Positions 5,615 to 35,552 of a DNA stretch of 64,000 nt are shown in pieces. Each line of letters starts with the position of its first letter. The first letter of the stretch is position 1. The stretch spans positions 15,459 through 79,458 of the forward strand of contig SHYD01000003.1 in the NCBI GenBank assembly GCA_009692945.1, written 5' to 3'. This DNA is from Dehalococcoidia bacterium. Its GTDB lineage: Bacteria > Chloroflexota > Dehalococcoidia > SHYD01. A program made the position numbers and the translations under genes. The notes beneath the pieces were generated by a model. That model ran no database searches and was not told the DNA's origin. It worked only from the letters and a program-made list of their open reading frames with translations.

Positions 5615-5617
5615 GCG

Positions 5618-6592: not shown

Positions 6593-6602
6593 GGTGTTGC
6601 TG

Positions 6603-8414: not shown

Positions 8415-8557
8415 CCGTGGGGGGTTGTGTCGGTTTTTCGTTCCGTTGCCCCCCCCCCCGAAAAAGAGAGAGTTTTTGTTCTTGGGGGACACCCCCAAGC
8501 CCCCGGCAGGAGGCTTCCCCCCCCCTGCACTCCCCATGTGACCGCGAACCGAGGTCG
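8415..8557 (+). repeat. Interspersed repeat, diverged subfamily copy
   Basis: Contains GAAAAAGAGAGAGTTTTTGTTCTTGGGGGACACCCCCAAGCCCCCGGCAGGAGGC...CTGCACTCCCC. Its closest relative is the copy at 21043-21180. Lies between convergent gene ends. Confidence 0.7.
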
Positions 8558-14486: not shown

Positions 14487-14585
14487 CGATCGAACACCTG
14501 TTTCCTTGGATTCAACATACGGTCTGCCAGATACAGCGTCAATGTTTGACAGCACGAAAACCACCTCCTATGCTGAGGCTGCTCC

Positions 14586-16197: not shown

Positions 16198-17541
16198 ATG
16201 ACCAGCCGGGCCGACCTGCCACATCCCGATCTCCAAACCGGTGCGATCCTCCAGGAACTGAGGCGGGAACTGTGCGTGCTCCAGGAAGCATCGTCCCCGT
16301 CGCTGGCGGGGACCTTCGTGGAGTTGCAAGCGACCGACGCCCTCGGCACATTTGTGCTGTCAAACTCGGTTCAGGACTTGGACCGGCGTTCGGCACTCAC
16401 TCCACTGCCCTTCGGATCGGACCTGCCATTGGTGGGGCTGGCCGTTGCCAAGTTCCGGACGTTGTGGAACGAGGTTGCGACGCGCTGGTACCTCCAGCCC
16501 CTGTTGCAGCAGCAGTCCGAGTTCAACGCCAGTGTGGTCCGTTTCGGGCACCTGGTGTCGCAGATGTTGCGGCTGCTTCAGCCGGACGAGGACCAAGAAG
16601 CGAGCGCCCGGCGGGATCGTCAGGAAGTTTCGCTGACCAAAAGCCTGGCGCAGCTCGAACTGTTGCTCGGCCGCCTTCAGGATGGCGTCCAGCGGACGGA
16701 AGCGCCCGGCGCCCGTGCGGAGATTGCAGGACTGACTGCACGCATTGCGTTGTTGGAAGGCTTCCAGTCCACATCCGGGGCGCCGCCTCGGGTTGGGCAG
16801 CGCCAGCCACCCTCCGGCGCGCCACCTGCTGCCCCCTTTGATTACTTCGGCTTTGAACTCCAATTCCGGGGAGAGCCCGCCGCGCTCAAGGAGCGGCAAC
16901 GGCTCTACCTTGAGTATTTCCCGTCCGGTCCGGTGCTGGATCTGGGGTGTGGAAGGGGCGAGTTCGTCGAATTGTTGGGCGAGCAGGGTATCCCGGCATC
17001 AGGAGTCGATGCCGACCCTGGGATGGTGGCGTACTGCATCGAGCGGGGTCTGAATGTGACACGGAACGACCTGTTGGCCGCGCTGGAGGGGCATGCCGAT
17101 GCCGGTCTGGCGGGGATATTCTCGGCTCAGACCATCGAACACCTGGCCCCCGGTGATATTGCACGGCTCGTCTCGCTCTCGTTCCAGAAGCTGGCGCCGG
17201 GCGGGTTGATGGTCCTCGAGACCATCAACCCCATCTGCCTCACTGCCCTGGCCACCACCTACACGCTCGATCTGACCCATCGCCAGCCGGTACATCCAGA
17301 CACGGCGGCGTTTCTAGCGAGGTCGGCCGGCTTTCTTGAAGTCGAAGTCCGCTATCTCTCCCCGGTCCCGGATCACCTTCGGCTTCAGGTCTTTGCGCCA
17401 ATCGACCAGTTGCCTGGGTCGGAACCGTGGCGCTCCATGCTGAATGCCAATGTCCAACGGCTCAATGACGTGCTGTTCGGATACCAGGACTACGCCCTCA
17501 TCGCCCGCAAGGCGCCCGCGCTCGACCGCGGATCGTTCTGA
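16198..17541 (+). CDS. Class I SAM-dependent methyltransferase with a long helical N-terminal domain
   Basis: C-terminal VLDLGCGRGEFVELL...IEHLAPGD...LAPGGLMVLETINP. The roughly 230-aa N-terminal region is Leu/Gln-rich. Confidence 0.75.
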   Translation: MTSRADLPHPDLQTGAILQELRRELCVLQEASSPSLAGTFVELQATDALGTFVLSNSVQDLDRRSALTPLPFGSDLPLVGLAVAKFRTLWNEVATRWYLQPLLQQQSEFNASVVRFGHLVSQMLRLLQPDEDQEASARRDRQEVSLTKSLAQLELLLGRLQDGVQRTEAPGARAEIAGLTARIALLEGFQSTSGAPPRVGQRQPPSGAPPAAPFDYFGFELQFRGEPAALKERQRLYLEYFPSGPVLDLGCGRGEFVELLGEQGIPASGVDADPGMVAYCIERGLNVTRNDLLAALEGHADAGLAGIFSAQTIEHLAPGDIARLVSLSFQKLAPGGLMVLETINPICLTALATTYTLDLTHRQPVHPDTAAFLARSAGFLEVEVRYLSPVPDHLRLQVFAPIDQLPGSEPWRSMLNANVQRLNDVLFGYQDYALIARKAPALDRGSF

Positions 17542-18587
17542 TGGGGATGCGAATCTGCATTGGGGCGGTGCAGGTCCCCTTCGTGCGGGGCGGCGCCGAG
17601 ATGCTGGTGGAATCATTGCGAGACGCGTTGGTGGAACGGGGCCATACCGTGGAGGTGGTGGCGTTGCCCTTCAAGTGGTATCCCAGCCGGCAGGTGGTGT
17701 CCCACGCCCTGGCATGGCGGTTGCTGGATGTCACCGAGGCTCAGGGCCGGCCCATCGATCTGTTCATCCCCACCAAGTTCCCGGCCTACTTGGCCCGGCA
17801 CCCCAACAAAGTGACGTGGCTGTTTCATCAGTTCCGGCAGGCGTACGACCTCGATGAGAGTGCCTTCAAAGAGCTCTCGGGAACCCCCGAAGATGAATGG
17901 GTGAAACGGAAGGTCCGCGCAATGGACGCCAAGGCTTTGCCCGAGAGCCGCGCCATCCACACCATTGCCCAAAATGTGAGCCGGCGGCTGCAACGATACA
18001 ACGGGGTGGCCAGCACCACCCTGTATCCCCCGCCGCCGCTGGCCGAACGGTACCATTGCAGCGATTACGAGCCCTTTGTATTGTCGGTCGGGCGGCTGGA
18101 TGCGATCAAACGCGTGGACCTGCTGCTCCGCGCGCTGGCGGTCAGCAGCGGGGGGCTTCGGTGCGTGGTGGCAGGGACCGGGCCAGAGGAGGCGCGTCTC
18201 CGAGCGCTGGCGAAGGAGTTGGGTGTTGACCGGCGGGTCGAGTTCGCCGGTTTCGTTTCAACCGAACGGTTGCTGGAACTCTATGCCCGCTGCGGCATGG
18301 TGTACTACGCGCCCTACGATGAGGACTACGGGTTCGTGACGCTGGAGGCACTCCGCTCCAGCAAGCCGGTGGTAACCGCCGACGACTCCGGGGGAGTGTT
18401 GGAGTTCATCCGTCATGGGGAAACAGGGCTCGTGGCCGCCCCCCGCCCGGAGGCGGTCGCCGCCGCGCTGGACCGGCTCGCCCAGGACCCGCAGGGAGGA
18501 GCCCGGATGGGGGAGCGAGGCCGGAACGAGGTGGCCGATATCTCGTGGGATAGGGTGCTCGAAGGTCTCCTTGCGACGGCCACTTAG
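17541..18587 (+). CDS. Glycosyltransferase family 4 (GT-B)
   Basis: TGATG overlap with the upstream gene. C-terminal EX7E region YAPYDEDYGFVTLEALRSSKPVV...GETGLV. Confidence 0.85.
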   Translation: MGMRICIGAVQVPFVRGGAEMLVESLRDALVERGHTVEVVALPFKWYPSRQVVSHALAWRLLDVTEAQGRPIDLFIPTKFPAYLARHPNKVTWLFHQFRQAYDLDESAFKELSGTPEDEWVKRKVRAMDAKALPESRAIHTIAQNVSRRLQRYNGVASTTLYPPPPLAERYHCSDYEPFVLSVGRLDAIKRVDLLLRALAVSSGGLRCVVAGTGPEEARLRALAKELGVDRRVEFAGFVSTERLLELYARCGMVYYAPYDEDYGFVTLEALRSSKPVVTADDSGGVLEFIRHGETGLVAAPRPEAVAAALDRLAQDPQGGARMGERGRNEVADISWDRVLEGLLATAT

Positions 18588-18594
18588 GCTCGCT

Positions 18595-19932
18595 GTGGTG
18601 AGCCCTCTGCCGCCCCAGCCCACGGGCATTGCGGATTACTGTCACGAGCTATTGCCGTTTCTCGCCCCGTACGCCGAGATCGACCTGTTCGTTGACGATT
18701 ACGAGCCGTCCGATCCCCTGCTCAAGTGGAGCTTCCCCATTCGAAACTATCGGGACCTCCCTTGGCGGCACGCTGAGGGCCGGTATGATGCCGTGCTGTA
18801 CCAACTGGGAAACAGCCTGGTGCATCGGTACCAGTGGCCGCTGATTCACCGGATCCCCGGTTTCGTGGTACTGCACGACCTAGTGCTGCAGCACCTGGTG
18901 GCGGGTATGGCCATCGATCATAGGCGGCCCGGAGAGTACCTAAGAGCAATGGCCTACGCCCATCCGGGGGGCGGACTGCGCATGGGATGGGAGGTCATGA
19001 CCGGACAGCGCAGCATTCCCTTCACCGAGTCCCCTTTCTGCCAGAGCGTGGTCGACGTCAGCCTGGGGGTGCTGGTGCACAGCAGGTTCGTTGAACGAGC
19101 GGTGACCGCCCTTCAGCCCCGCGCCGCGGTGGGCTACGTGCCGATGGGGATACCGCTGCCCCAGTGGTCCGCTGCCAAGACCTCGGTACGGCGGGGCCTC
19201 GGCCTGCACCCAGATCGGTTCGTCGTAGCCTCGCTGGGCGAGGTGACCCAGCACAAGCGATTCGCTGAAGTGCTGGCGGCCCTGCGGCAATTGGCCGCCG
19301 CAGGGGCGGATTTCCAGTATGTGGTCATCGGTAACACTGCGGACTTCGACATCCGCCCTGACATTGCCGGCGCCGGACTGACCGACCGGGTGCGGATGAC
19401 TGGACGGGTGGATCGGGCAACGTTCGAGGGTTACCTTCAAGCAGCCGACGTCTGCATCAACCTGCGTTATCCCACCGCCGGGGAGACCTCGGCGTCGGCG
19501 CTGCGCAGCATGGCCGCGGGCCTGGCGGTGATCGTTTCTGATATCGGAGCCAACCAGGAGTTGCCGGAAGCCTGCTGCATCAAGCTGCCGGTGGGGGGCG
19601 ACGAGGTCCCGCTTCTGGCGGCCGCCCTGGGGTGGCTGAAGGACCATCCTGAAACCCGGTCTGCGCTCGGTCAGAATGCGCGGGCATTCGTGGCGCGGCG
19701 CCATACCCTCGAGGGCGCTGCCGCGGCCTATATCAACTTCATTCAAGATGTGCTCCATACGCCATGGCGTCCGCCGGTCGAGATCGAGCCGATGGCTCAT
19801 GAGCCCGATGTACAATACGTGCGTGATCTGGCGCGGGAGCTTCACGGCCTCGGGTTCCGCGCTGACGACCTCCCATACCTGACCGAATTTGCGGGCGGCA
19901 TCGCTCAGACGGGGATCGAGGTGACGGGATGA
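18595..19932 (+). CDS. Glycosyltransferase family 4 (GT-B)
   Basis: ORF 18415..19932 trimmed to the GTG at 18595 (VVSPLPPQPTGIADY), just after the upstream stop. Motif PTAGETSASALRSMAAGLAVIVSD. Confidence 0.8.
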   Translation: MVSPLPPQPTGIADYCHELLPFLAPYAEIDLFVDDYEPSDPLLKWSFPIRNYRDLPWRHAEGRYDAVLYQLGNSLVHRYQWPLIHRIPGFVVLHDLVLQHLVAGMAIDHRRPGEYLRAMAYAHPGGGLRMGWEVMTGQRSIPFTESPFCQSVVDVSLGVLVHSRFVERAVTALQPRAAVGYVPMGIPLPQWSAAKTSVRRGLGLHPDRFVVASLGEVTQHKRFAEVLAALRQLAAAGADFQYVVIGNTADFDIRPDIAGAGLTDRVRMTGRVDRATFEGYLQAADVCINLRYPTAGETSASALRSMAAGLAVIVSDIGANQELPEACCIKLPVGGDEVPLLAAALGWLKDHPETRSALGQNARAFVARRHTLEGAAAAYINFIQDVLHTPWRPPVEIEPMAHEPDVQYVRDLARELHGLGFRADDLPYLTEFAGGIAQTGIEVTG

Positions 19933-19963
19933 ATTGGACCGTGGTCCGGATGAGGAGGCCTGC

Positions 19964-20986
19964 ATGACCACCAGACCGTTGCGCCGGATGCGGTCCGATA
20001 CCGAGGCTGCGCCGGCGCTCCTTGCGTACTCTCTGATCATCCCGGTCTACAACGAGGCGGGGAATGTCATCCCGCTGTACGACGCCATCGTTCCCGTCAT
20101 GGAGCAGTTGGGAGACAGTTTTGAAGTCGTTTTTGTGGACGACGGCAGCCGGGACGACAGTTTCGCGGAGTTGGCCACCGTCGCCGCGCGCGATTCCCGC
20201 GTCCGCGTCGTGCAGTTCCGCCGCAATTTCGGGCAGACGCCCGCCATCGCCGCAGGAATCGACTACTCCCGCGGGGAAGTGCTGATCTTCCTGGATGCCG
20301 ACCTCCAGAACGACCCCACCGACATCCCCCGGTTGGTGGATGCACTGGCCGAGGGATACGACGTTGTCAGCGGTTGGCGCAAGGACCGCCACGACACCCT
20401 GGTGACCCGGAAGGTGCCTTCTTGGGCGGCGAATTGGCTGATCTCCACCATCACCGGGGTAAAACTGCGCGACTACGGGTGCAGTCTCAAGGCGTACCGG
20501 CGTGAGGTGCTGGTCCACGTCAACCTCTATGGGGAGATGCACCGGTTCATCCCGGCGTACGCCTCCTGGGTCGGCGCTGCGATCACGGAGATCCCCGTGC
20601 AGCACCACGCCCGGGTGAGAGGTAAGTCCAAGTACGGCCTCTCCCGCACGGTGAAGGTTATCCTGGACCTGCTGACCGCGAAATTTCTGGCGAGCTACGC
20701 CACCAAGCCGATCTATGTCTTCGGCGGCGTAGGCTTAACGCTGCTGGCCCTGGCGGTGGCCAGTCTGCTGATAGCGCTGGTGCAGAAGGTCACGATGGGG
20801 GTCTCGCTGATCCAGACCCCGCTGACCATGCTCTCCGCCATCCTGGGCGCCACCGGGTTCATCGCCATCCTGCAGGGGCTGAACGCCGAGGTCGCCATCC
20901 GTACCTATCATGAATCGCAACAGAAGCCGACCTATACGGTCAGACGGGTGCTCAACGGCGGCGATACCGGCGATCCCCCTCGCTAG
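19964..20986 (+). CDS. Glycosyltransferase family 2, polyprenyl-phosphate glycosyltransferase-like (GtrB/ArnC/Ppm1-type)
   Basis: ATG at 19964 follows GAGGAGG. Motifs IIPVYNEAGN, VFVDDGSRDDS and DADLQNDP (DXD), with two C-terminal TM helices. Confidence 0.85.
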   Translation: MTTRPLRRMRSDTEAAPALLAYSLIIPVYNEAGNVIPLYDAIVPVMEQLGDSFEVVFVDDGSRDDSFAELATVAARDSRVRVVQFRRNFGQTPAIAAGIDYSRGEVLIFLDADLQNDPTDIPRLVDALAEGYDVVSGWRKDRHDTLVTRKVPSWAANWLISTITGVKLRDYGCSLKAYRREVLVHVNLYGEMHRFIPAYASWVGAAITEIPVQHHARVRGKSKYGLSRTVKVILDLLTAKFLASYATKPIYVFGGVGLTLLALAVASLLIALVQKVTMGVSLIQTPLTMLSAILGATGFIAILQGLNAEVAIRTYHESQQKPTYTVRRVLNGGDTGDPPR

Positions 20987-21042
20987 CCGGGCGCCGTCTG
21001 AGGCCGTTCGGCAGCGCGTTGCCGTCCAGGGGAGTACGATTT

Positions 21043-21180
21043 CAGACTCGGGGTCGGACACGGGGGTGCAGGGGGCAAAGCCATCCTGCCGGGGGACTGG
21101 GGGTGTTCCCCCAGAAACAAAAACTTCTCTTTTTTCTCGGTGGATGGGGCAAACGGCCGGGACGCAGCCCCCCAAGACTG
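21043..21180 (-). repeat. Interspersed repeat, diverged subfamily copy with clear terminal inverted repeats
   Basis: Ends are CAGACTCGGGG ... CCCCCCAAGACTG. The core is CCGGGGGACTGGGGGTGTTCCCCCAGAAACAAAAACTTCTCTTTTTT. Partner copy at 8415-8557. Confidence 0.75.
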
Positions 21181-21265
21181 AGTAGTTACCCAGGGGACGG
21201 CCCCGCGATCCGTCATCGCCGGGCCGGGTAGAATGAAGGTAGTCCATTCTGCATAGGAGGTTCCC

Positions 21266-22105
21266 ATGTCGCCAATTCGTGTATTGCAGGCCGTGTGCGC
21301 CCTCTCCATTCTGACCGGCGGGGCCTTCGCGGTGCAGCCGCATCCGTTTCCGGCTAGCGCCGAGACACCGATGCCCAAACTGCTGAGCGTTTCGGCCTTT
21401 GGCCAGGTGATGGCCAAGCCGGACATGGCCACGGTTCACCTGGGGGTGCAGGCCGATGGGCCGACCGCCGCGGCCGCCATGCAGGCCAACGGCGAACGGA
21501 CGAATGCAATGGTCGGCCGGATCAGGGCCTTGGGGATCGAGGAAAAGGATCTCCAGACCACCGGGTTGAGCCTGTTTCCAGTGTATAACCATCCGGGGAT
21601 CATGGGAGAGGGCGCTGTGACTGCCGAGCCGGGCGACCAGCCTTCGCCGCCGCCGGTAAGTGTGACACCGATGCCGACACCGGCACCGGCGCGCCCTCCA
21701 GGGGCCCCCTTCGTTCCGGTTGTGGTCGCCTACCGGGCCGTGACCAACCTGACGGTGACCGTTCGGGACCTGAGCAAGGCGGTGTGGGTCATCGATGCCG
21801 GCGTCCAGTCCGGGGCGAACCTGGTGAGCGGGGTCAGTTTCGGGCTATCGAATCCCGAGGCGATGCGGGAAGACGCCATGCGCAAGGCCGTCCAGGCGGC
21901 CAAGGCCAACGTGCTGGCGCAGGAGGCTGGAGTCTCCATCGTGGGGGTTCAAAACCTGAGTGAAGGGGGCGGGTATCCCGGCCCCTTCACTCAGGTTGGG
22001 CCCTTCTTTGGCAAGGGGGGCGACGGCTCCTCCCCGGCCGTTCCCGTTGAACCCGGGCAACTCACGCTCACCTCTTCCGTCAGCATCTCCTACCTGATCT
22101 CGTAG
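21266..22105 (+). CDS. SIMPL (DUF541) domain secreted protein with a Pro-rich insert
   Basis: AGGAGG RBS, a signal peptide, and KPDMATVHLGVQADGPTAAAAMQANGERTNAMV...EEKDLQTTGLSLFP. Confidence 0.75.
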   Translation: MSPIRVLQAVCALSILTGGAFAVQPHPFPASAETPMPKLLSVSAFGQVMAKPDMATVHLGVQADGPTAAAAMQANGERTNAMVGRIRALGIEEKDLQTTGLSLFPVYNHPGIMGEGAVTAEPGDQPSPPPVSVTPMPTPAPARPPGAPFVPVVVAYRAVTNLTVTVRDLSKAVWVIDAGVQSGANLVSGVSFGLSNPEAMREDAMRKAVQAAKANVLAQEAGVSIVGVQNLSEGGGYPGPFTQVGPFFGKGGDGSSPAVPVEPGQLTLTSSVSISYLIS

Positions 22106-22109
22106 ATTC

Positions 22110-24035: not shown

Positions 24036-25051
24036 ACACCCGCGTTTTGGACTATCTGTGCTGCCTAGATTGCGGCGGTATCCTGAACTTGGGGGAGGGA
24101 ACGGCAGGACCGGAGGTGGAGTCGGGTGAACTCGTTTGCGGCGGGTGCGGCCGCCGTTACCCGGTGGTGCGGGGCATCCCCAGGCTGCTGCCGGATGAAC
24201 TGACGTTGGAGAAGCTGCGGACTGCCTCGGCCTTCGGCTGGGAATGGCAGGAGTTCGACTCGCTCCACGACGACAAGGAGACCTACCACCAACAGTTCCT
24301 GGACTGGGTGCACCCCATTGAACCGGATTTCTTTCGGGGGAAGGTGGTGCTGGACGGGGGTTGCGGCATGGGACGGTTTGCCGCCGCCGCCGCCGAATTC
24401 GGAGCGAGGGATGTGCTGGCCATCGATCTCAGCGACGCCGTGGAGGCAGCCTACCGCAACACCAGGCACCTCCCCAACGTTCACGTGATTCAGGCCGACA
24501 TCTACCGGCTGCCCTTCGGGCGTCCCGTAGACTTTGCCTTCAGCATTGGGGTGCTGCACCACCTGCCGGACCCCGAAGGCGGGTTCCAGAGTCTGGTCAC
24601 GCACCTCAAACCCGGCGGGTCCGTGTTTGCCTGGGTCTACGGACGGGAGAACAATGCTTGGATCGTCCACCTGGTCAATCCCATGCGTGAGCGCATCTTT
24701 TCGAGGCTGCCAAGGAAAGCGTTGTATGCGCTCTCCCTGGCCGCCACGGTGCTAGTGCACCCCGTGTTGAAACTCCTGTATCTCCCGGCCAACCGCTTCT
24801 CGTCGCTGCGTCCGCTGTCCAAGATGCTGCCTTACAACGGGTATCTCAGTTGGCTGGCCCAATTCGGGTTCCGGCACAACCACCACGTGATATTCGACCA
24901 CCTGGTGGCCCCCACCGCGTTCTATATAACTCGGGACGAGTTCAGGGCCTGGTTCAACAAGGCTTCGCTTTCCGAGCCGCGCATCTCTTGGCGGAATCAG
25001 AACAGTTGGCGGGGCTGGGCCGTCCTCGAACATGCGGATTCTCGCGCTTAA
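24032..25051 (+). CDS. Class I SAM-dependent methyltransferase with a Trm112-like zinc ribbon
   Basis: ATGA overlap with asnB. N-terminal CLDCGG...CGGCGRRYPVVRGIPRLL. SAM site VVLDGGCGMGRFA. Confidence 0.8.
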   Translation: MNTRVLDYLCCLDCGGILNLGEGTAGPEVESGELVCGGCGRRYPVVRGIPRLLPDELTLEKLRTASAFGWEWQEFDSLHDDKETYHQQFLDWVHPIEPDFFRGKVVLDGGCGMGRFAAAAAEFGARDVLAIDLSDAVEAAYRNTRHLPNVHVIQADIYRLPFGRPVDFAFSIGVLHHLPDPEGGFQSLVTHLKPGGSVFAWVYGRENNAWIVHLVNPMRERIFSRLPRKALYALSLAATVLVHPVLKLLYLPANRFSSLRPLSKMLPYNGYLSWLAQFGFRHNHHVIFDHLVAPTAFYITRDEFRAWFNKASLSEPRISWRNQNSWRGWAVLEHADSRA

Positions 25052-27157: not shown

Positions 27158-27181
27158 CCGCTCCCCTCGGATAGGGCTTTA

Positions 27182-30100
27182 TTGGAAACTGCCTTCAAGC
27201 TGGCGCTCTTTTTCGCGGTCGCCGCACTCTACCTGGGTATTCTGGGGTACCTGCCCGCGCGCGTGCTGGTGCGGGGAGACGCGGCCAGGCTTCGGTGGCT
27301 CTTTTTGGCCCCCCTCGGGTTCTGCACTTTGGTGGTGCTCTCGTCGTTTCTCAATACCGGGTTCTTGCCGATGAGCCAATTGACCTGGCTCCTGCTGCTC
27401 GCCGGGGCGATTGGGGCGGGTCTCAGCCGCCGCTTCACCGGGTCCACGGGCCTTCCCCGCCCGGGGCGGGTCGAGGGTGCGGTGGCGGCGGTGGCGGTGC
27501 TGGCATTCGCGGTGGGGGTGGCGCCGTTGGTGCAGGCCGGGGCGACCACGTTCATCGGTGTGCAATGGGACCTGGAAATCTACCTGCCCCTCACCGAATA
27601 CCTCAAGCAGTACGTGGCGAACGGGCCTTTCCCGGCCCCGGCCAGCCCCCTGTTGGACAGCGCCAACAGCTTAGCCGTCCGCGGTGGATCGGGGCTAGGT
27701 TTCTCCTATTTCGATGCAGCGATGGGGACGTTGCTCAACTGGCCCTCGGACCAGACGTTCCGGCCGTCGCTCCACGCGCTGCTCGGCCTGACGGCGCCAT
27801 CGGTGTATCTGTTTGCCCGGCTTGGCCTCAAGCTCGCCGCCGCCCCAGCGTTGGCCGCCGCGGGATTGACGGCATGCAACGGGCTCAACCAATGGCTGGG
27901 TGCCATTGGCCTTGCCGGGCATACCGTGGCGCTGGGGTTGTTGCCGCTGGCATTGCTGGGCGTGTTGCTGGTCCTGCGGACCGTCAATTGGCGGGAAGCC
28001 GCCTTGGCGTCGCTCTCCATCGCTGCGATGCTGTTGTGCTTCTACACGGGCGCTGTGGCCGTGTTTGGAGTGGTTGCGGCCGGCGTTGGCCTGGCGCATC
28101 TGCTGACAGCGCCAGAAAAGCGGCGGGTGCTCGCCGCCGGAGGGATGACGCTCCTCGGCGTCGCGAGTCTTGGTATAGTGGCTCATTTCAGGTTCCTGGA
28201 ACTGTTGCCGCTCTACTTCGGCCAGGGGTTCACCGAAGGATGGCACGTCGTCCGCTTCTCCCCCGCCAGCGAGGCGCTGGGGCTTACCACATTCTCCCTG
28301 ATTGTGAACCGGCTCGACGGCACCGCATTCTGGGGGCCAGACCCTGCCCCCGAGTTAGCGGCGTTGGCCACCGGGTTGACGCTGGTGAGCGGAGGGCTTG
28401 GGCTGGTGGCGCTGCTCTCCGGTGGGTGGGACCGCCGCAGCATGGTGGGGCTGGCGGCCGCGGCCTTGGGATTCGCGGTGGTGCTGCGGTTTGGCGCCCA
28501 GTACCACTATGGCTACTTCAAGCTGCTGTCACTAACCTCGTTCATCCCGGCGTGCCTGGTGGCCCAGGGGTTATGGACCGTCTGGCAGCGTGGGGCGTCG
28601 GGCGCCTTTGGCGGCGGCCGGTTGGGGGTCCGCCGTCTGCTCGCATCCGCCTTCGTCATCGCGTTCCTGCCGCTGTTCGTGGCGAACGCCGTTCAAAGCC
28701 TGCGGTTCTTCTGGTCGGCGGATGAGAACGAGCTGCCGCAGGCGGTCTGGGAACTGGGGGCCCTGCGTTCGCTGATCCCACCCGGGGTCCCGGTGTATGT
28801 GGGTGGCCGCTCGTCCTTTGATCCCCGTACCACGGCGATGGTGGCGTATTATCTGCGGGCAAATCCGCTGGTGGGGAGCGTCAAGACGGCGTATGGCGAA
28901 CTCCAGAGCCGGCGTCCGGACGAGTACTTCGCCTACCTGTTGTTGCGGGCCGGGGACAGGCCGGAAAAGCGGGGGTTGACCGGCGCTGATGCCATCTGGC
29001 GAAACGATCTCGCGGTCCTATACCGGCGGCCTCCGGGGTGGCTGTCCGCCGTGGACTTCGAGAGTGTGGCGCAGCCGATGGTGGTCCGGCAGGACGGCGA
29101 ATACCGGGTGGAACTCACCTACAACTCCTGGTCCATTTCCGACGGTCAGCGTTCCTTCGAGGGTTCTCTGCATGCTGCAGCAAACCGGCCTCGTATCGAA
29201 TTATCGCTGCTGAGCATGGGCGAAGGGCGCGCCACCGTCCGGCGGGGCGACGCAGTCGACTCACTGGGGATCGAAGCCGGGCTGCTGAACTACCGATCGG
29301 AACCCGTGACCGCGCCTGGGGTCATGACCCTTCGGATCGATCGCACGGACCGCCCTGCCTGGCTCCTGGGACTGAGGGTAGTCAGCGAATCCGTGGGCGT
29401 GCCGGAGGTCTGGCGCAGAGAAGACCTGCTCTTGCTGCATCCCTCGGCTCAGGTGGTGGGGTCTGAGGCCCGATTGACGCTCGACTATCTGCTGTCGGAC
29501 CCCAAGGGCGGGGACCTCGCGGTGGGAGTCGAGGTGTACCGGCGGGGACGAGACCAGCAGGACCTGCGTCCTATCGACGCATGGCAGATCGTGAAGGAGC
29601 AGGGCGATGGAGATGGCGAGGCGCGCTTTGTGCTCGACGCTTCCGGCTGGCGCTGCGGTGAGGCTTCCGCCCAATTGAACCAAGGAGGGGCGCCCCCGCC
29701 GGATGGGGAGTATGAGGCCCATGTTGCGGTGTACTACCTCGGACTGGAGGTGGCGCGGTGGCCGTGGGTTGCTATCAGCAGGCAGGGGCAGGAAGTCCGT
29801 TTGCAGTTGAGGCCGATGGAGCAATATCACCTGTTGCCCATCCCGCTCCCCACCGATGTTGCGAGGCTGGCGTCGCACATCCCAGATGGACTGAACGTGG
29901 TGGCTCCGGCGGTGACCGACCCCGACAGCGCCTTCATCGCAGTGGCGCGATGGAAATTGAAGGACAGACTGGTCGCTCGGGACCAAACGGCCCTCGATGC
30001 CCCTCTCGTGTTGCTGCCGCGCCGCGAGAGCCCCGGCGACTGGGGACTGGGCGGGGCTGCTGTGGTGTGGCGGAACTCCCAGGCCGTCCTGTACCGGGCG

Positions 30101-30568
30101 CCGGCGGGCATCCGGTTGGGCGCCGGCGCCGATCGCGGTTGGGCCGGGTGGCGGCTGCGGGCATCCTCGGAGCGGGACGCCGGGACCGTTGCGACCGTCC
30201 GTGTCGAGTTGAGCGGGCCACAACGTGAAAACACGCTAATTGGGTTGGACGTGTACGGCGAACGCTCGTGCGGGCTTGAGCATTTTGGCTGGTGGGCGGC
30301 GGCGACAAACCAACTGCCGCCGCGATTCCAAGCGGTGCTGGACATGACACGCCAGCTCGGGCGGATCGAAGACCGTGCGGATTCGCCGCTGCCATTCTCA
30401 TTCCAGACCTGGCCGGTATCCGACGGGAGGTTCCGCGCGTTCCTATACCTCAAACAGGGAGAGGTGTTTGACAGCTTCCCGGCCTTCGAGTTTACTGTGG
30501 AGAACGGCCGGGTGGTGCGGTACCGGGGGTTTCCAGTCGACCGGCTGGTCCCCCTCCGAGGGAATTGA
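27182..30568 (+). CDS. Large polytopic membrane protein of unknown function (possible GT-C-like N-terminal half plus a ~570-aa extracytoplasmic C-terminal half)
   Basis: 1128-aa ORF from a TTG. About 13 hydrophobic helices fall in the first ~560 aa. The soluble C-terminal half has an internal repeat ending W-R-N-x-x-A-V-L-Y-R-x-P-x-G. I recognise no family motif. Confidence 0.6.
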   Translation: METAFKLALFFAVAALYLGILGYLPARVLVRGDAARLRWLFLAPLGFCTLVVLSSFLNTGFLPMSQLTWLLLLAGAIGAGLSRRFTGSTGLPRPGRVEGAVAAVAVLAFAVGVAPLVQAGATTFIGVQWDLEIYLPLTEYLKQYVANGPFPAPASPLLDSANSLAVRGGSGLGFSYFDAAMGTLLNWPSDQTFRPSLHALLGLTAPSVYLFARLGLKLAAAPALAAAGLTACNGLNQWLGAIGLAGHTVALGLLPLALLGVLLVLRTVNWREAALASLSIAAMLLCFYTGAVAVFGVVAAGVGLAHLLTAPEKRRVLAAGGMTLLGVASLGIVAHFRFLELLPLYFGQGFTEGWHVVRFSPASEALGLTTFSLIVNRLDGTAFWGPDPAPELAALATGLTLVSGGLGLVALLSGGWDRRSMVGLAAAALGFAVVLRFGAQYHYGYFKLLSLTSFIPACLVAQGLWTVWQRGASGAFGGGRLGVRRLLASAFVIAFLPLFVANAVQSLRFFWSADENELPQAVWELGALRSLIPPGVPVYVGGRSSFDPRTTAMVAYYLRANPLVGSVKTAYGELQSRRPDEYFAYLLLRAGDRPEKRGLTGADAIWRNDLAVLYRRPPGWLSAVDFESVAQPMVVRQDGEYRVELTYNSWSISDGQRSFEGSLHAAANRPRIELSLLSMGEGRATVRRGDAVDSLGIEAGLLNYRSEPVTAPGVMTLRIDRTDRPAWLLGLRVVSESVGVPEVWRREDLLLLHPSAQVVGSEARLTLDYLLSDPKGGDLAVGVEVYRRGRDQQDLRPIDAWQIVKEQGDGDGEARFVLDASGWRCGEASAQLNQGGAPPPDGEYEAHVAVYYLGLEVARWPWVAISRQGQEVRLQLRPMEQYHLLPIPLPTDVARLASHIPDGLNVVAPAVTDPDSAFIAVARWKLKDRLVARDQTALDAPLVLLPRRESPGDWGLGGAAVVWRNSQAVLYRAPAGIRLGAGADRGWAGWRLRASSERDAGTVATVRVELSGPQRENTLIGLDVYGERSCGLEHFGWWAAATNQLPPRFQAVLDMTRQLGRIEDRADSPLPFSFQTWPVSDGRFRAFLYLKQGEVFDSFPAFEFTVENGRVVRYRGFPVDRLVPLRGN

Positions 30569-30647
30569 GGTCACGAGTGATTGCGCCCGAAAGCTTGACC
30601 GGGAAGCCTGGGCCTATGATTGCCCTCCCCAAACAGCGTTTCTGCCG

Positions 30648-32678
30648 TTGAATAAGTTGGAGCAATTGAAGGCCGCGCCCCCAACCCTTCGCCAGGGTCT
30701 GGTGCGGCGCTTGGCACGCATTCCAGAGGCGGCGTTGGTGGCTCTGGCGGTGGCGGTGGCGGTGTTGCTGGCGTTGCCGAACCTCGAGAGCAACCCTCCG
30801 CTGTCCTACGACGAGGGCTATGGGCTGGGGGCGCCCCACAACCTGCTCCAGGAGGGTTGGTACGGCGTCCGTATCGGACACCGCAACGAACTCTTCGACA
30901 CCCACCTCAGCACCGGTCCCACCGTCCTCTTGCCCGTCTGGGCGATGTTTGTCCTCTTCGGCGAAGGGGTGGCCAAAGCGCGGGCGATTCCGATCCTGTA
31001 CGGCGCTCTTGTGGTTGCCGCCGGGTACTGGTTCGTGCGGTCGTATGCCGGCCGGTTGGGTGGGCTCGCAGCGGCGCTGCTGCTGGCCGGCGCGCTCTAC
31101 CCCTATTCGCGGTCGGTGCTGGGGGAGACTCCCGGCTTCTTCTGGCTGTTGCTGGGTTCCTTGCTCTGGTGCCATGGAATTCGCCGCAACAGCATCCCGC
31201 GGCTGCTCCTGTCGGGAATCGCGCTGGGCTTGGCGGTGCTGACCAAGCTGGCGTTGGGCCCGATCATCCTTGTTGGGTTTGGCGCCACCCTTCTCGGCAC
31301 GGTGGCTTTGGGGCGTCCGCTGCGTCTCAGGGCGGGGCTGGCGCCCTTGCTCGCAGGCATGGTTCCGGTGGCAACGTGGTATGCGGTCCAATTCGTTTTC
31401 CTGGGGCCGGTGGCGTTCTGGCAGCGGCTCACGACGCTCACAAGCTATCAGGGCCAGATGGCGGACCTGGGACGGGTGGGCGGCAACTGGGAGGCGCTGG
31501 CGGGCTTTGTGCCCTCCGGCCTGCTCCCCTGGGTGGCGCCCGCAGCGTTGTTCCTCGTAGTCCAGGTGTTCCGGGCAGGGTCGCGCCGGCCCGAAATCAT
31601 CCTGTTGGGTGGTCTGATGGCGGCATCGCTGTGCTACTTTTTGCTGTCGGTGGGATGGTCGCGCTACGCTTACTGGTTCGTCTTGTTCTGCGCGTTGGCC
31701 GTCGGGTCGCTGGCGCCGCTGTTTCTCAGGGAGTTGCGGCGCCATATTCCGGCCGCCACCGCACAGGCTCGCTGGGCGTGGGCAGCGCCTCTCGCCGTTT
31801 GGGCAATGCTGTTGCTCCCCCAGGCCGGCTGGTCGCTCAGCAGCGCCGCTCGCAGTGATGAATCGTTGGCCAACACCGTGGGTTTCGTGAAGCAGCATGT
31901 GCATCCCGACGATGCCGCAGGGACCACGGAGAACGAGGTCGGGTTCGTTTCCGGCGTAAGGTTCACGTATCCCCCGACCTTTGTCGCTACCGTCTCGAAT
32001 GAAACGGTGCGGGACAGCTATGACTGGGCCTGGGGCACAACAGACTGGGTGGTGACGGGGCTTATTGGGCATTTCCTGGGAGCTGACAAGGCGCTGGAGC
32101 AGAACGGCCGCTTCGTGGAGCGGTTCCGTGCGGGGGCATACCGGGTGTTCCAACGGCATCCCGACGCCGCACCGCTGCCGGGATGGTTGTGGAACGCCAC
32201 CGGGGCCTCTCCCTCGCCGGCGCTCGGTGCAGGGCAGGCCGGCCAGGCCTTCGTGGCGCCTTACTCTATGATCACCGAAGTGCGGGTGTTGCTGGCCGGA
32301 GAGGGCCGGACGAATAACGCCGCAGTGTGGCTGCGCATCTACGACACGCCATCGCGCGGGCGGATGTTGTCGCAGGCTGAGATATCTGGGCGGGACATCG
32401 TGCAGAACAAGTGGTACTCCTTCGACGTTGGCAGGCTCCACATGGTTCGGGGGCAGCAATACTATCTGGAGTTGGTGTCGCGCCCTGGCCCCAACGAAGT
32501 GTCGGTTACGGCATGGGTGAACGCCGCGATGGACTATTATCCCGATGGCCGGTGGTGGCAGGACGGCCTGGCCCAGGAGGGCGACCTGTATTTCGGCGTA
32601 CTCGGGCACGACCCCTCAGGGGGCCTGGTCCGCAATCTGGGGCCGGAGGCGTTGTGGTTGAGCGGAGCCGGGCCGTAG
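30648..32678 (+). CDS. GT39/PMT_2-like (ArnT-type GT-C) membrane glycosyltransferase with a C-terminal beta-rich domain
   Basis: ORF 30375..32678 trimmed to an in-frame TTG at 30648, after the upstream stop; the start is uncertain. N-terminal SYDEGYGLGAP...LSTGPTVLLPVW..., about 11 TM helices and a ~250-aa soluble C-terminus. Confidence 0.65.
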   Translation: MNKLEQLKAAPPTLRQGLVRRLARIPEAALVALAVAVAVLLALPNLESNPPLSYDEGYGLGAPHNLLQEGWYGVRIGHRNELFDTHLSTGPTVLLPVWAMFVLFGEGVAKARAIPILYGALVVAAGYWFVRSYAGRLGGLAAALLLAGALYPYSRSVLGETPGFFWLLLGSLLWCHGIRRNSIPRLLLSGIALGLAVLTKLALGPIILVGFGATLLGTVALGRPLRLRAGLAPLLAGMVPVATWYAVQFVFLGPVAFWQRLTTLTSYQGQMADLGRVGGNWEALAGFVPSGLLPWVAPAALFLVVQVFRAGSRRPEIILLGGLMAASLCYFLLSVGWSRYAYWFVLFCALAVGSLAPLFLRELRRHIPAATAQARWAWAAPLAVWAMLLLPQAGWSLSSAARSDESLANTVGFVKQHVHPDDAAGTTENEVGFVSGVRFTYPPTFVATVSNETVRDSYDWAWGTTDWVVTGLIGHFLGADKALEQNGRFVERFRAGAYRVFQRHPDAAPLPGWLWNATGASPSPALGAGQAGQAFVAPYSMITEVRVLLAGEGRTNNAAVWLRIYDTPSRGRMLSQAEISGRDIVQNKWYSFDVGRLHMVRGQQYYLELVSRPGPNEVSVTAWVNAAMDYYPDGRWWQDGLAQEGDLYFGVLGHDPSGGLVRNLGPEALWLSGAGP

Positions 32679-34072
32679 TGCTGCTGCTTCAGGGCGCGGG
32701 GCGTCCGCTCCACCGGTTGGTGGTGCGGCAGGGCTTTCGCCTAGCCAATCGCAACTCGGCCCTCGGACGCAATTGGGCCGCCTTGGAGGCGAGCCAATGG
32801 TGGTCCGCCGAAGCGTTGCGCGTTGAGCAATGGACGAAGCTGCAACGGCTGGTGCTCCACGCCTTCAACCAATCGCCCTTCTACCGTCTCGCCATGGAGG
32901 ACCTAGGCATGACGCCCCACGACATCCGGTCCCCCGAAGACTTCGCCCGTCTCCCCATCGTCGACAAGCAGACCATCAATGGCCAGCGCGAGACGATGGT
33001 GGCGCAGCAGTTCCCACGCGACCGGCTTATCAAGACTGCCAGTGGCGGCTCCACCGGCGTTCCGGTCAGCCTCTATCACGATCCCGGTTTCGTGGCGGCG
33101 TACCGGGCGGTGAAACTCCGCAACTTTGGCTGGGCCGGGTGGCGCCCCGGTGATGCCTGGGCCCGGCTGTGGGGCGCCCAGTTCGATGTCGCTCCGCACC
33201 AGCAGTTGAAGCAGCAGGTTTGGGACGGGCTGACCCGCGTGATGGTGCTCCCGTGCTGGGACATGAGCGAAACGACCATGACGGAGTACGCAGGCCGGCT
33301 TCGCCGGTTCCGTCCCGACGTGATCGAGGCGTATGTGACTCCGATGTATCACTTTGCCCGGTTCCTCGATGCCCGGGGGATCCGTGGGATCGAGCCCCGG
33401 GGGATCATCTGCTCCGCCGAAATGCTGTTCGACCATCAACGTGACCTGATCCAGCGGGTTTTCGGATGCAAGGTGTTCAATCGGTACGGTGGGAGGGAGG
33501 CGGGCGACATCGCCCACGAGTGCCCGGCCGGCACAATGCACCTCAACGCGGAGAACTACTACGTGGAGTTCCTGCGGGATGGGCGCCCGGTGGCCCCAGG
33601 AGAGCCGGGAGAGATCGTGGTTACCCCGCTGGACCTGTTCGGGATGCCGCTGCTTCGCTACCGGGTGGAGGACGCCGGTTCCCCGGCAACAGGGTCCTGC
33701 GTCTGCGGCAGGGGCCTGCCGGGCATGGCCGTGGTGGAAGGCCGGATTCAGGACCTGATCACCCTTCCAGGAGGACGGTCTTTGCCGGGAGAATTCTTCC
33801 CCCATCTTCTGAAAGATTTCCCCGTCAGGCAATTCCAGGTGGAGCAGGACCGGCCGGATCACGCCGTGTTGCGTTTGGTACGTGGCGAGGGTTTTACCGA
33901 TGACAACCTGGCCTACCTGTTGGAGAAAACGCGTGAATACACGGCCGGGACGTTGGATGTTACTGTCGAGTTTTGCGAGTCCATCCCGCTGACCCCCACC
34001 GGCAAGTTCCGCTACACCATTTCCCATGTGCCCCCGGTGTTCATTCCGGTCAGAGCGGACTCCCGTGTTTGA
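32678..34072 (+). CDS. Phenylacetate-CoA ligase family / CapK / F390-synthetase-like adenylate-forming enzyme
   Basis: GTG at 32678 overlaps the upstream TAG (TAGTG). Motifs SPFYRLAMEDLGMTPHDIRSPEDFARLPIVDKQ, SGGSTGVP and TPTGKFRY. Confidence 0.8.
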   Translation: MLLLQGAGRPLHRLVVRQGFRLANRNSALGRNWAALEASQWWSAEALRVEQWTKLQRLVLHAFNQSPFYRLAMEDLGMTPHDIRSPEDFARLPIVDKQTINGQRETMVAQQFPRDRLIKTASGGSTGVPVSLYHDPGFVAAYRAVKLRNFGWAGWRPGDAWARLWGAQFDVAPHQQLKQQVWDGLTRVMVLPCWDMSETTMTEYAGRLRRFRPDVIEAYVTPMYHFARFLDARGIRGIEPRGIICSAEMLFDHQRDLIQRVFGCKVFNRYGGREAGDIAHECPAGTMHLNAENYYVEFLRDGRPVAPGEPGEIVVTPLDLFGMPLLRYRVEDAGSPATGSCVCGRGLPGMAVVEGRIQDLITLPGGRSLPGEFFPHLLKDFPVRQFQVEQDRPDHAVLRLVRGEGFTDDNLAYLLEKTREYTAGTLDVTVEFCESIPLTPTGKFRYTISHVPPVFIPVRADSRV

Positions 34073-35552
34073 CCCGTCCGCGGTGGCGATTTGGGACGCC
34101 GGAGTGACCAACTACCCGGAGTCGCCGCCGTTTCACCCGGAAACTGCCTACCCGGAGTATCCCTTCGGCCCGGCAGCGGTGGGACCTCCAAACCTCGTTT
34201 ATGGGGCGGTCAGAGCGATGCTGAACGGCCTGGGGCTGGACTCGGCCAACTTTGGCCGGCCGGAATGGAATCCCCTGGGCGAACTCGTCCAACCCGGCAA
34301 TACGGTGGTGATCAAGCCGAATTTCGTCATCAGCGAGCACCGGGACGGCCTGCCCGGGATCCAGGCGGCGGTGGTCCACGGGTCGGTGTTGCGTCCGCTG
34401 GTGGACTACGTGTATCGGGCGCTCGAAGGGCGCGGGCGAATCATCGTGGCTGATTCGCCGATCAAAGAGGTCGATTTCGATCGGATCGTCGAACTCACCG
34501 GGATCGCCGCCATCAAGGCATTCTACGACTCCGGGACGCCGCAGGGGCTGGAGCTGCTGGATTTCCGGGACGCTCAGGTGGAACGCAACGCCTCCGGGTT
34601 CATGGTCGAATTGCGGCCGTTGACGGGGGACCCCGCAGGCTACACGCTGGTGGACCTGGGACGGGACAGCATGTTCGAGGAGATCGCCGGCCTTGCCGGG
34701 CGGCTGCGCAGCACCGCGGTGTACTACGAAGACGTGATGGAGTCTTTCCACCGCCCCGGCCACAATGTGTACAGCCTGCCCAACACGCTGCTGAACGCCG
34801 ATGTGGTTATTTCCGTGGCCAAGCTGAAGACCCATCGCAAGGGCGGCATCACCCTGACCCTCAAGAATGCCGTCGGGATCACTAACGAGAAGCGGGGGTT
34901 GCCGCACCACCGGGCGGGACCGCCACGGGCCGGCGGCGATGCGGTGGCCGACGACGCCCGGCTCGACGCCCAACTGGAGGACCGGTTCCGGGATTTCATG
35001 TTGGGCCAGCCCCTGGGCCGGACCGGCCTGAGGGTGATGGGCGGGCCGCTGCGGACGGCGGCCCGGGTGGTGAAGCCGCTGTTCCGGCGGCTCTCTCCCG
35101 GGCGCCCGGCTGTGGTGGAAGGCGACTGGTACGGCAACGACACGGTGTGGCGAATGGCGCTCGATCTGAACCGGGTCCTGCTGTACACCGGGCGCGATGG
35201 CATGCTGAAGGATATCCCCCAGCGGCGCTATCTCGGCGTGGTCGACGGTGTGGTGGCGGGAGAGGGCGAGGGGCCCCTATTCCCCACCCCAAAGGCCTGC
35301 GGCGCGCTGCTGGCAGGTGGGAACCCGGTGCTGGTGGACATCGCCGGAACGCGGTTGATGGGGTTCGACTGGCACAAGGTGCCGATGCTGCGAGAGGCGG
35401 TGGCGCGGCGGTGGCCGGTCACGATTCCAGTCGATCCGGAAAATTTTCCCATTTTCAGTAACCATAGTGCATGGAGTACAGTTTTAGAGTCTACGGAGGG
35501 GTGTTTTTCCTTCGAGCCAACCCAAGGCTGGAAGGGACACATCGAGACGTGA
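34065..35552 (+). CDS. DUF362 domain protein
   Basis: GTG at 34065 overlaps the upstream gene by 8 nt. Motifs GNTVVIKPNFV and VVISVAKLKTHRKGGITLTLKNAVGI. Confidence 0.8.
   Translation: MFDPSAVAIWDAGVTNYPESPPFHPETAYPEYPFGPAAVGPPNLVYGAVRAMLNGLGLDSANFGRPEWNPLGELVQPGNTVVIKPNFVISEHRDGLPGIQAAVVHGSVLRPLVDYVYRALEGRGRIIVADSPIKEVDFDRIVELTGIAAIKAFYDSGTPQGLELLDFRDAQVERNASGFMVELRPLTGDPAGYTLVDLGRDSMFEEIAGLAGRLRSTAVYYEDVMESFHRPGHNVYSLPNTLLNADVVISVAKLKTHRKGGITLTLKNAVGITNEKRGLPHHRAGPPRAGGDAVADDARLDAQLEDRFRDFMLGQPLGRTGLRVMGGPLRTAARVVKPLFRRLSPGRPAVVEGDWYGNDTVWRMALDLNRVLLYTGRDGMLKDIPQRRYLGVVDGVVAGEGEGPLFPTPKACGALLAGGNPVLVDIAGTRLMGFDWHKVPMLREAVARRWPVTIPVDPENFPIFSNHSAWSTVLESTEGCFSFEPTQGWKGHIET

Follow-up and report, generated by a model that had tools for sequence, protein, structure and literature searches.

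A ten-gene core block in Dehalococcoidia that probably encodes a lipid-linked glycan pathway split across the cytoplasmic membrane

We analyzed a 64,000-nucleotide (nt) stretch of contig SHYD01000003.1 (hereafter the window, with positions counted from its first letter) from an uncultured freshwater Dehalococcoidia bacterium, whose metagenome-assembled genome (MAG) of 2.5 Mb is 81% complete, and describe a cluster of thirteen genes within it, g01 to g13. The first ten genes probably encode a self-contained pathway for a lipid-linked glycan that is divided between the two sides of the cytoplasmic membrane; the most likely product is a short, chemically tailored sugar chain that is made on a membrane lipid, flipped and finished outside the cell. 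Leaving aside g05, which encodes a SIMPL protein, this core comprises one glycosyltransferase of family GT2 of the type that acts on a lipid phosphate, three of family GT4, three tailoring enzymes, one flippase-like protein and one protein of the GT-C glycosyltransferase fold. The proposal is based on protein families, predicted folds, translational coupling and synteny, from which we infer the substrates, the direction of flipping, the acceptor and regulation by an extracytoplasmic function (ECF) sigma factor. The window's own genome is labeled G000, related genomes G001 to G016, and loci or contigs of relatives or metagenomes carry L numbers.

Results

Organization and conservation of the cluster

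The original prediction had described thirteen co-directional, mostly overlapping or abutting genes, and this is what we find: all thirteen open reading frames (ORFs) lie on the forward strand where it had placed them, with high third-position GC. The junctions from g01 to g13 are overlaps (TGATG, ATGA, TAGTG) or gaps of at most 24 nt, with two exceptions, namely up to about 140 nt before g11, whose start is uncertain, and the interval 20986-21266 between g04 and g05. The latter, between the GT2 and SIMPL genes, is the sole sizeable intergenic gap and is filled by a dispersed repeat resembling a miniature inverted-repeat transposable element (21030-21195, no strand assigned); it gave 109 blastn matches in the genome, that is, more than 100 copies, and a further copy lies at 8415-8557 of the window. 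A promoter and terminator scan of the cluster returned counts no higher than the shuffled expectation, and the window sequence was matched in freshwater DNA metagenomes only, with no RNA runs containing it.

While the ORFs stand, five gene limits had been set too early; the likely starts are about 18571 for g03, 24032 for g07, about 30711 for g11, 32678 for g12 and 34065 for g13. The g03 ORF is open from 18415 and its likely start is a TTG at 18571. An ATG at 18415 would give a 173-nt overlap with g02, and tblastn alignments of relatives reach into this overlap; the gene calls of the relatives (466-484 amino acids (aa), overlapping the upstream gene by about 26-29 nt) favor a position near the g02 stop. 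From about 30711, g11 encodes 655 aa, the same as the called protein P0018.

A comparison of gene neighborhoods, which the original prediction had proposed as a check, shows that the order of the genes is kept. The relatives of the window are all named Chloroflexota or Dehalococcoidia, and tblastn of all window products against them recovered the same order in G003, G004 and G007. In G003 it runs from a UbiA-family gene through tlyA and nadK to g01 to g13 and the genes for an ECF sigma factor and an anti-sigma factor, with g11 absent; G004 and G007 have the same order, with tlyA not detected. Contig-limited or partial copies in G001, G002, G005 and G009 retain it as far as the contigs reach. 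Three metagenome contigs agree by their precomputed Pfam calls, with the order of g01 to g10 kept in L082 and L083, and in L081 as far as that contig reaches. In all, at least nine genomes or contigs of related Dehalococcoidia show the synteny, an arrangement far beyond chance.

Two parts can be distinguished. Genes g01 to g10 are a constant core block, within which SIMPL g05 varies (absent in G002, G004 and G007), and the triad of GT4 (g08), UPF0104 protein (g09) and g10 is present in every orthologous locus, down to 33% identity. The 3' extension, made up of g11, g12, g13 and the ECF pair, varies: the cluster of L082 ends directly after g10, and both there and in G009 the genes g12, g13 and the ECF pair are absent and ribBA follows g10. 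The earlier statement that an ECF pair follows directly holds for most relatives and fails in these two.

Several local differences were seen within the relatives' loci. In G009, from a neighboring family, an extra methyltransferase gene stands between the GT4 and UPF0104 genes (L026, 4966-6366), which suggests lineage-specific variation in tailoring. G001 has two two-gene cassettes, each of an AAA_21/AAA_15 ATPase and a DUF4276 protein, inserted inside the cluster to either side of the AsnB gene (L020, 1283-3185 and 5070-6811) and resembling OLD-type defense or selfish modules; G002 has an insert of similar size at the position of the second of these (L023, about 5072-6799). The G007 orthologues of g08 and g10 are each split over two frames (L015, 13241-13386 and 17870-17873), through either frameshifts or long-read assembly errors.

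The GT-C-fold protein g10

The candidate for the core outer-face transferase is g10 (27182-30568, forward strand), a membrane protein of 1128 aa with a beta-rich C-terminal half of about 600 aa. It has no match in Pfam or NCBIfam and no PDB sequence match at E <= 10, Emb proteins and AftD included. An AlphaFold2 model made from an alignment of 16 homologues (pLDDT 85.5, pTM 0.79) consists of a helical membrane domain to about residue 511 followed by the beta-rich half. When this model was compared with the PDB by Foldseek, the top matches were all GT-C enzymes: AftD (1.3e-8), STT3 from yeast and human (from 4e-7, target-normalized TM-score 0.41-0.46), DPY19, PglB, EmbC/EmbB and ALG12 (0.54), with a probability of 1.00 for AftD, STT3, PglB, Emb and ALG12. 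The predicted structure assigns g10 to the GT-C fold, with an orientation of the active side toward the outer face that we infer. The likeness to Emb and AftD is at the level of the predicted fold only, with no membership by sequence, and g10 has neither an STT3 Pfam signature nor a WWDYG motif (there is no WWD motif in the C-terminal half). The beta-rich half gave weak beta-sandwich matches only, to LacZ domains, and shows weak internal repetition (31% over 96 residues, E = 8e-6), with two repeated modules. Both large membrane proteins of the cluster, g10 and g11, had been proposed to be GT-C-like; predicted structures and Foldseek show this fold for each of them, and the non-GT-C structure that was to count against the original prediction was found for neither.

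Polar residues conserved among 136 members of the g10 family are D130 (93%), E132 (76%), R213, Y443 (99%) and K447 (96%). The W-D130-x-E132 motif, together with Y443 and K447, would fit the catalytic acid and the donor-phosphate site of a GT-C enzyme, with D130 placed relative to the membrane by the positive-inside rule.

Relatives of g10 numbered 16 in a word-indexed search of 5.8 billion proteins, and an exhaustive profile search through 1.84 billion representatives gave 581 matches at E <= 0.001, 181 of them at E <= 1e-30; every match with a named genome was a Chloroflexota MAG. Among 61 genomes of the class, 12 have matches, and full-length orthologues occur only in the window's own family and one neighboring family. 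The own genome (contig C79) and its relatives also encode a paralogue, about 910 aa long, among the housekeeping genes for FtsH, Dcd, LspA and RluD, as read from the G004 orthologue on L018. We rejected this context as a functional clue, given that the neighbors are housekeeping genes and their order is conserved only within the family, and likewise the distant family member P0016, which stands among unrelated genes. A recent common origin of g10 and g11 was also rejected, as a profile-profile comparison gave a probability of 3.8% and no significant similarity.

The flippase-like protein g09

The gene that precedes g10, g09 (26198-27157, forward strand), overlaps g08 by ATGA and encodes a UPF0104 or MprF-flippase-domain protein (LPG_synthase_TM; PF03706 1.9e-43, 149.5 bits against a cut-off of 33.4; TIGR00374 57.6 bits against 43.2), for which we found no PDB sequence relatives. 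It is the only flippase-like protein of the cluster: no cluster product has a Pfam match to a GtrA-family or small multidrug resistance (SMR; ArnE/F) flippase, and the genes are too tightly packed to leave room for such a gene.

In the orthologous loci g09 is always coupled to the GT4 g08 and to g10. In other families of the class, 7/19 UPF0104 paralogues stand beside a GT2 and 0/19 beside a GT4, and the substrate of g09 is a question on which the two kinds of context would point in opposite directions, to GT4 and g10 in the cluster and to GT2 among the paralogues. The paralogues at L061-L067 and L079 directly adjoin GT2 ORFs, several of which span only about 230 aa and resemble part of a split archaeal AglD, and three other paralogues lie in ORFs of 1048-1534 aa that are apparent fusions. 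A preprint on 'PplT' domains describes GT-B fusions in Chloroflexi (10.1101/2022.03.11.483950).

Archaeal UPF0104 proteins have been predicted to be glycosylation flippases, in neighborhoods of an AglD-like GT2, UPF0104 and a PMT/STT3-like protein (Makarova et al., 2015; PMC5898192). The parts of the cluster had been called unusual, and this applies to the g10 family, which lacks a Pfam or NCBIfam model; that 2015 study had already predicted a UPF0104 flippase in archaea, next to an AglD-like GT2 and a PMT/STT3-like GT-C.

The GT2 and the cytoplasmic enzymes

The family calls of the original prediction were borne out by Pfam, NCBIfam or PDB searches, with g10, which has no family match, identified as GT-C by fold. 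This includes the GT2 g04 (19934-20986, forward strand), which had been assigned to the polyprenyl-phosphate sugar synthase type and is ArnC/GtrB/PgfS-like. It aligns over its full length with ArnC (PDB 9bhc, 1.4e-49) and with GtrB sll0501 (4.7e-37), and has two C-terminal transmembrane helices (265-283 and 295-313); in NCBIfam it matches the ArnC model NF007986 (1e-58 over 8-313/316) and PgfS (1.6e-47). It falls below the ArnC equivalog cut-off and is thus not an ArnC orthologue. Identity in relatives is 70-83%, and the gene is kept on every contig that includes the upstream part of the cluster, even where g11 is missing (G003, L082). The own genome yielded just two ArnC-like GT2 genes. The second, 43% identical to g04, lies 1 kb 5' of genes for a DUF2079 membrane protein and a 705-aa protein (G000 contig C15, L050, 760-6950), a locus that looks like a minimal module of a GT2 and a membrane transferase.

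The three GT4s, all on the forward strand, are g02 (17541-18587; Glycos_transf_1 2.7e-33; 67% identity in G003, G004 and G007), g03 (18571-19932; Glycos_transf_1 7.7e-13) and g08 (25032-26201; Glycos_transf_1 1.2e-39 and Glyco_trans_4_4), the last of which is always directly 5' of the flippase-like gene. The predicted tailoring enzymes of the core are likewise on the forward strand. g01 (16198-17541) starts 2 nt after the nadK stop and encodes a class I methyltransferase with an N-terminal extension of about 230 aa of unknown fold; Methyltransf_23 and MetW match residues 230-380, the PDB match is 3dli (1.3e-43), and its position at the head of the cluster is conserved in relatives. g06 (22110-24035) is a glutamine-dependent AsnB-type amidotransferase (Asn_synthase 4.7e-103 plus GATase_7; 637 bits against TIGR03108, under the cut-off of 817); it is the single copy in the genome and belongs to the core block of all relatives. 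g07 (24032-25051), which overlaps g06 by ATGA, is a Trm112-like zinc ribbon fused to a class I methyltransferase (Trm112p 5e-07, Methyltransf_25 2e-16). The variable g05 (21266-22105, forward strand) is a SIMPL (DUF541) protein (8.4e-43) with an N-terminal hydrophobic transmembrane or signal segment at 6-24.

The best NCBIfam matches of g02 are GT4s of the MshA and BshA types, makers of small-molecule glycosides, and the 3' part (g11 to g13 and the ECF pair) is clearly separable. These observations would suit two unrelated units placed side by side, one cytoplasmic (GT4s, methyltransferases, AsnB, ligase) for a soluble glycoside or storage glycan and one a membrane module (GT2, UPF0104, GT-Cs). 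We regard such a juxtaposition as very improbable, as the cytoplasmic and membrane genes are interleaved (GT4-GT4-GT2 followed later by GT4-UPF0104-GT-C), translationally coupled and inherited as one block in all relatives.

The variable 3' extension

The accessory transferase g11 (30711-32678, forward strand) is a PMT_2-type GT-C, ArnT/PMT-like, with a PMT_2 score of 28.1 bits against a cut-off of 26.1 and a conserved ...NPPLSYDEGY loop after the first transmembrane helix. A PDB sequence profile search gave nothing usable. Its model is of moderate quality (pLDDT 69) and matches STT3, AglB, ArnT (TM-score by target 0.52-0.53), PglB and ALG12, with a Foldseek probability of 1.00 for STT3, ArnT, PglB and ALG12. 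The original prediction had seen two candidate GT-C partners for the GT2; both have the fold but they are not equivalent, as g11 is gone from the cluster in G003, G005, L082 and G009. G003 keeps the GT2 at 76% identity in a cluster without g11, which argues that the GT2 does not serve g11 alone; it would act with g10 or with the cytoplasmic assembly. In G000, G003, G004 and G007 (2.2-2.8 Mb) we counted 13 PMT_2 matches each, some in ORFs of 1000-1500 aa fused to DUF2298, besides two g10-family genes.

g12 (32678-34072, forward strand) shares a TAGTG overlap with g11 and encodes a PaaK/CapK-like adenylate-forming ligase (NF045666 3.5e-39; PaaK 2e-25; PDB PaaK 4r1l 3.5e-23), with Pfam CapK_C present in an orthologue. 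The DUF362 protein g13 (34065-35552, forward strand; 3.3e-26) is translationally coupled to it by an 8-nt overlap; it is 67-69% identical in relatives and has no PDB sequence relatives. Downstream lie genes for a BldN-like ECF sigma factor (35753-36334, forward strand; Sigma70_r2 and r4_2; TIGR02952 3.2e-42, below cut-off) and, with a 4-nt overlap, a DUF5667 anti-sigma factor (36331-37551, forward strand; 3.6e-17) with one transmembrane helix at about 105-128. The sigma gene is 79-86% identical and adjacent in G001, G003, G004, G007 and L083. No other neighbor is as well conserved as this pair, which is absent in the more distant loci and probably couples the locus to envelope signaling.

Surroundings and absent canonical partners

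The genes tlyA and nadK lie directly upstream of the cluster, then an opposite-strand UbiA-family gene and, farther away, two MoxR/DUF58/VWA modules. On the 3' side are genes for a sugar-phosphate isomerase-like protein, a Rieske oxygenase, a VWA protein, an MFS transporter and luciferase-like oxidoreductases. The original prediction saw no Wzx/Wzy, ABC exporter or initiating transferase, and we agree: by Pfam, sizeable ORFs in 34-48151 (16 kb upstream and 12 kb downstream) include no Wzx, Wzy, ABC-2 exporter or initiating phosphoglycosyl transferase, the search for Wzx, Wzy and ABC-2 being limited to this interval and not genome-wide. Each of the near-complete genomes G003, G004 and G007 has two genes of the WbaP type and two of the MraY/WecA type, none of which lies within or next to the cluster; their Bac_transf genes are 13 kb to more than 100 kb away and not syntenic. 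No linked initiator or exporter was seen in any relative examined.

This pattern bears on the original proposal of a Gtr-type module, in which the GT2 monosaccharide would be flipped by UPF0104 and added singly by g10 (and g11) to a polymer or protein made elsewhere, with GT4s and tailoring enzymes serving that other pathway and its initiator and exporter encoded elsewhere, as in Gtr/Arn-type three-component decoration. Much of the module stands: the alignment of the GT2 with ArnC and GtrB covers its full length, UPF0104 is the sole flippase-like protein, and both large proteins have the GT-C fold. The genome has a simpler two-gene version in the second ArnC-like GT2 next to the DUF2079 protein, UPF0104 paralogues of the class often adjoin a GT2, and WbaP- and WecA/MraY-type genes do exist elsewhere in the complete relatives. 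Single-sugar decoration, however, leaves unexplained three GT4s, two methyltransferases and AsnB, which have no role in such a module yet form an invariant core with g09 and g10. The flippase-like gene, moreover, is always coupled to g08 and g10 and not to the GT2, and the relatives show no linked initiator or exporter. We therefore regard Gtr/Arn-type decoration as an unlikely account of the locus.

The UbiA-family gene (13554-14564, reverse strand) lies 1.6 kb upstream of the cluster, divergent from tlyA at a distance of 21 nt, and occurs in 33/61 genomes of the class. It scores above the NCBIfam cut-offs for decaprenyl-phosphate phosphoribosyltransferase (DPPR synthase; 256 against 234 bits) and is syntenic in G003, G004 and G007. 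Mycobacterial GT-C enzymes receive their lipid-linked pentofuranose donor from this synthase. By analogy, g10 could be an AftD/Emb-type transferase of ribo- or arabinofuranosyl residues fed by the upstream synthase, with the GT2 feeding g11 or priming the glycan. AftD has the lowest Foldseek E-value for g10 and the Emb proteins match too, the synthase is present in 11/12 genomes with a g10-family gene and in 22/49 without one, and there is precedent for three-component pentofuranose systems with new GT-C families (PMC11127046). Weighing against this, the UbiA/tlyA/nadK arrangement is older than the cluster: it recurs in G016, where nadK is followed by other genes and the neighboring operon is a different, Wzx-containing glycan locus, so the adjacency seems coincidental. 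The synthase gene is also on the other strand with two housekeeping genes between, its co-occurrence outside the own order is not significant (3/3 against 21/48, p = 0.10), no phosphatase or epimerase partner was seen nearby, and the TM-score of g10 against AftD is low (0.27-0.29). On the older synteny and the lack of significant co-occurrence outside the own order, DPPR synthase was demoted as a part of the system, and a pentofuranosyl role for g10 appears improbable.

Discussion

We propose that inside the cell the ArnC/GtrB-type GT2 (g04) would load a sugar onto polyprenyl phosphate, the three GT4s (g02, g03 and g08) would build a short oligosaccharide on the lipid, and two S-adenosylmethionine (SAM)-dependent methyltransferases and the ATP- and glutamine-dependent AsnB would tailor the glycan, to which set most relatives would add the CapK-like ligase with its DUF362 partner. 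The UPF0104 protein g09 would move the lipid-linked intermediate or intermediates to the outer leaflet, where g10 would perform the final transfer and the PMT_2 protein g11, where present, would add a further lipid-donated sugar. The tailoring enzymes need the cytoplasmic cofactors SAM, ATP and glutamine. Their activity is therefore restricted to the cytoplasm and the methyl and amide groups must be in place before flipping, which in turn argues for an elaborate cytoplasmic lipid-linked (or nucleotide-linked) intermediate and not a single donated sugar.

This scheme could operate in two ways. We tentatively favor a route in which polyprenyl monophosphate is primed by the GT2, the part played by AglJ in Haloferax; the GT4s would extend this primer, and the chain, once flipped by g09, would be passed on by g10 to a surface protein or polymer. 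Such an order of events would use each core gene except SIMPL once, with one flipping step, and would thus need no WecA/WbaP-type initiator. The other arrangement, to which we give still more guarded credence, has the GT4s building on a glycerolipid, as PimA and PimB' do, with UPF0104 flipping the product and the GT2 supplying a polyprenyl-phosphate sugar to g10 outside. It has bacterial precedent, but entails a second flipping step without an assigned protein; flipping of a glycolipid by UPF0104 has been proposed for gpgSDF and hexSDF (PMC12713373). A bolder and rather doubtful extension of the priming route is that g10, from a Chloroflexota-restricted family unrelated in sequence to STT3 or PglL/WaaL, is an en-bloc transferase to a surface protein or polymer in a bacterial AglJ-to-AglB-like monophosphate route with UPF0104 flipping a tailored oligosaccharide.

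Several considerations weigh against a self-contained pathway. We know of no bacterial oligosaccharide that is built on a GT2-primed polyprenyl monophosphate, although no search aimed at one was made. At 81% completeness the own genome may be missing partners, and the complete relatives hold WbaP- and MraY/WecA-type genes elsewhere. The fold matches of g10 are moderate (target-normalized TM-scores of 0.4-0.54) and do not separate an en-bloc from a single-sugar transferase, and the roles proposed for the cluster and the g10 family are predictions from genes and folds. Finally, lipid translocation by a stand-alone UPF0104 protein is unproven even for GpgF, encoded by gpgF, the best-studied bacterial case (PMC12713373).

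If the en-bloc route holds, g10 would represent a new class among the bacterial oligosaccharyl or glycan transferases, and UPF0104 would be a flippase of lipid-linked oligosaccharides. Chloroflexota envelopes are poorly understood, and some 13 PMT_2 genes together with two g10-family genes in each small genome imply that outer-face lipid-linked glycosylation is central to their surface biology. With one GT2, one flippase-like protein and one core GT-C that has no Pfam or NCBIfam model, the operon is a compact and conserved test bed. It could test the flipping of polyprenyl-linked sugars by MprF-type UPF0104 proteins, predicted since 2015 and for which we found no demonstration, and could reveal what is catalyzed by a GT-C family that spans about 580 sequence clusters.

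Comparison with known systems

The cluster resembles the Gtr/Arn/CsbB-type systems (GtrB/GtrA/GtrC of Shigella and Salmonella, ArnC/ArnE-F/ArnT, CsbB/GtcA/YfhO, and GT136 with a MATE flippase, PMC11127046) in that one operon combines a GT2 with a transmembrane tail, a protein in the flippase position and a GT-C with a large outer-face domain. It differs in that the flippase slot is filled by a UPF0104/MprF-type protein and not by GtrA, SMR, Wzx or MATE, Pfam and NCBIfam have no model for the family of its GT-C, the conserved block also includes three GT4s and three to five cytoplasmic tailoring enzymes as integral parts, and the initiator and exporter of an acceptor polymer are not linked. Three-component systems do gain new flippases and GT-C families, as shown by GT136 with its MATE flippase and C-terminal carbohydrate-binding module (PMC11127046).

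A GT4 gene directly 5' of a stand-alone UPF0104 gene is also found in gpgSDF of Pseudomonas aeruginosa and hexSDF of Clostridioides difficile, which combine a GT4, a deacetylase and UPF0104 (PMC12713373); by this analogy the gene order suggests that the glycolipid product of the GT4 is the flipped substrate. Those systems, in contrast, make a simple monosaccharide-modified glycerolipid without a GT-C or GT2, and the match of g09 to the GpgF model is only 2.7e-4, with the cluster GT4s far below the GpgS cut-off.

In actinobacterial synthesis of phosphatidylinositol mannosides (PIM), lipomannan (LM) and lipoarabinomannan (PimA and PimB' as GT4s; Ppm1 as GT2; PimE, MptA/B, EmbC and AftD as GT-Cs; a UbiA-type DPPR synthase) there are likewise cytoplasmic GT4s acting on a lipid anchor, a GT2 polyprenyl-phosphate sugar synthase and large GT-Cs with carbohydrate-binding-like C-terminal domains; a DPPR-synthase homologue is nearby here, and AftD gives the lowest E-value for g10. 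However, g10 is unrelated in sequence to Emb, Aft and Mpt, the adjacency of the DPPR synthase is probably coincidental, an explicit flippase candidate is present here, and the tailoring by AsnB and methyltransferases has no counterpart in PIM/LM synthesis.

The Agl pathway of Haloferax volcanii (AglJ, AglG/I/E, AglP, AglD with a UPF0104 C-terminal domain, AglS and AglB) shares a GT2 able to prime a polyprenyl (dolichyl) monophosphate. Together with the arCOG00899 neighborhoods (PMC5898192), it further shares additional cytoplasmic glycosyltransferases, a SAM methyltransferase that tailors the lipid-linked glycan, a predicted UPF0104 flippase, a PMT/STT3-like outer-face GT-C and no need for a WecA/WbaP-type initiator. 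The present cluster differs in its bacterial host (Chloroflexota) and GT4 elongating enzymes, in a g10 that has no STT3 Pfam signature or WWDYG motif, and in a UPF0104 protein encoded by a separate gene beside a GT4 and not fused to a GT2. Taken together, these comparisons show that the overall scheme of lipid-linked outer-face glycosylation is already known; what is new here is the g10 family, the tight GT4-UPF0104-GT-C triad, and the setting of that triad within a block of ten genes that is rich in cytoplasmic tailoring enzymes and lacks a canonical initiator or exporter.

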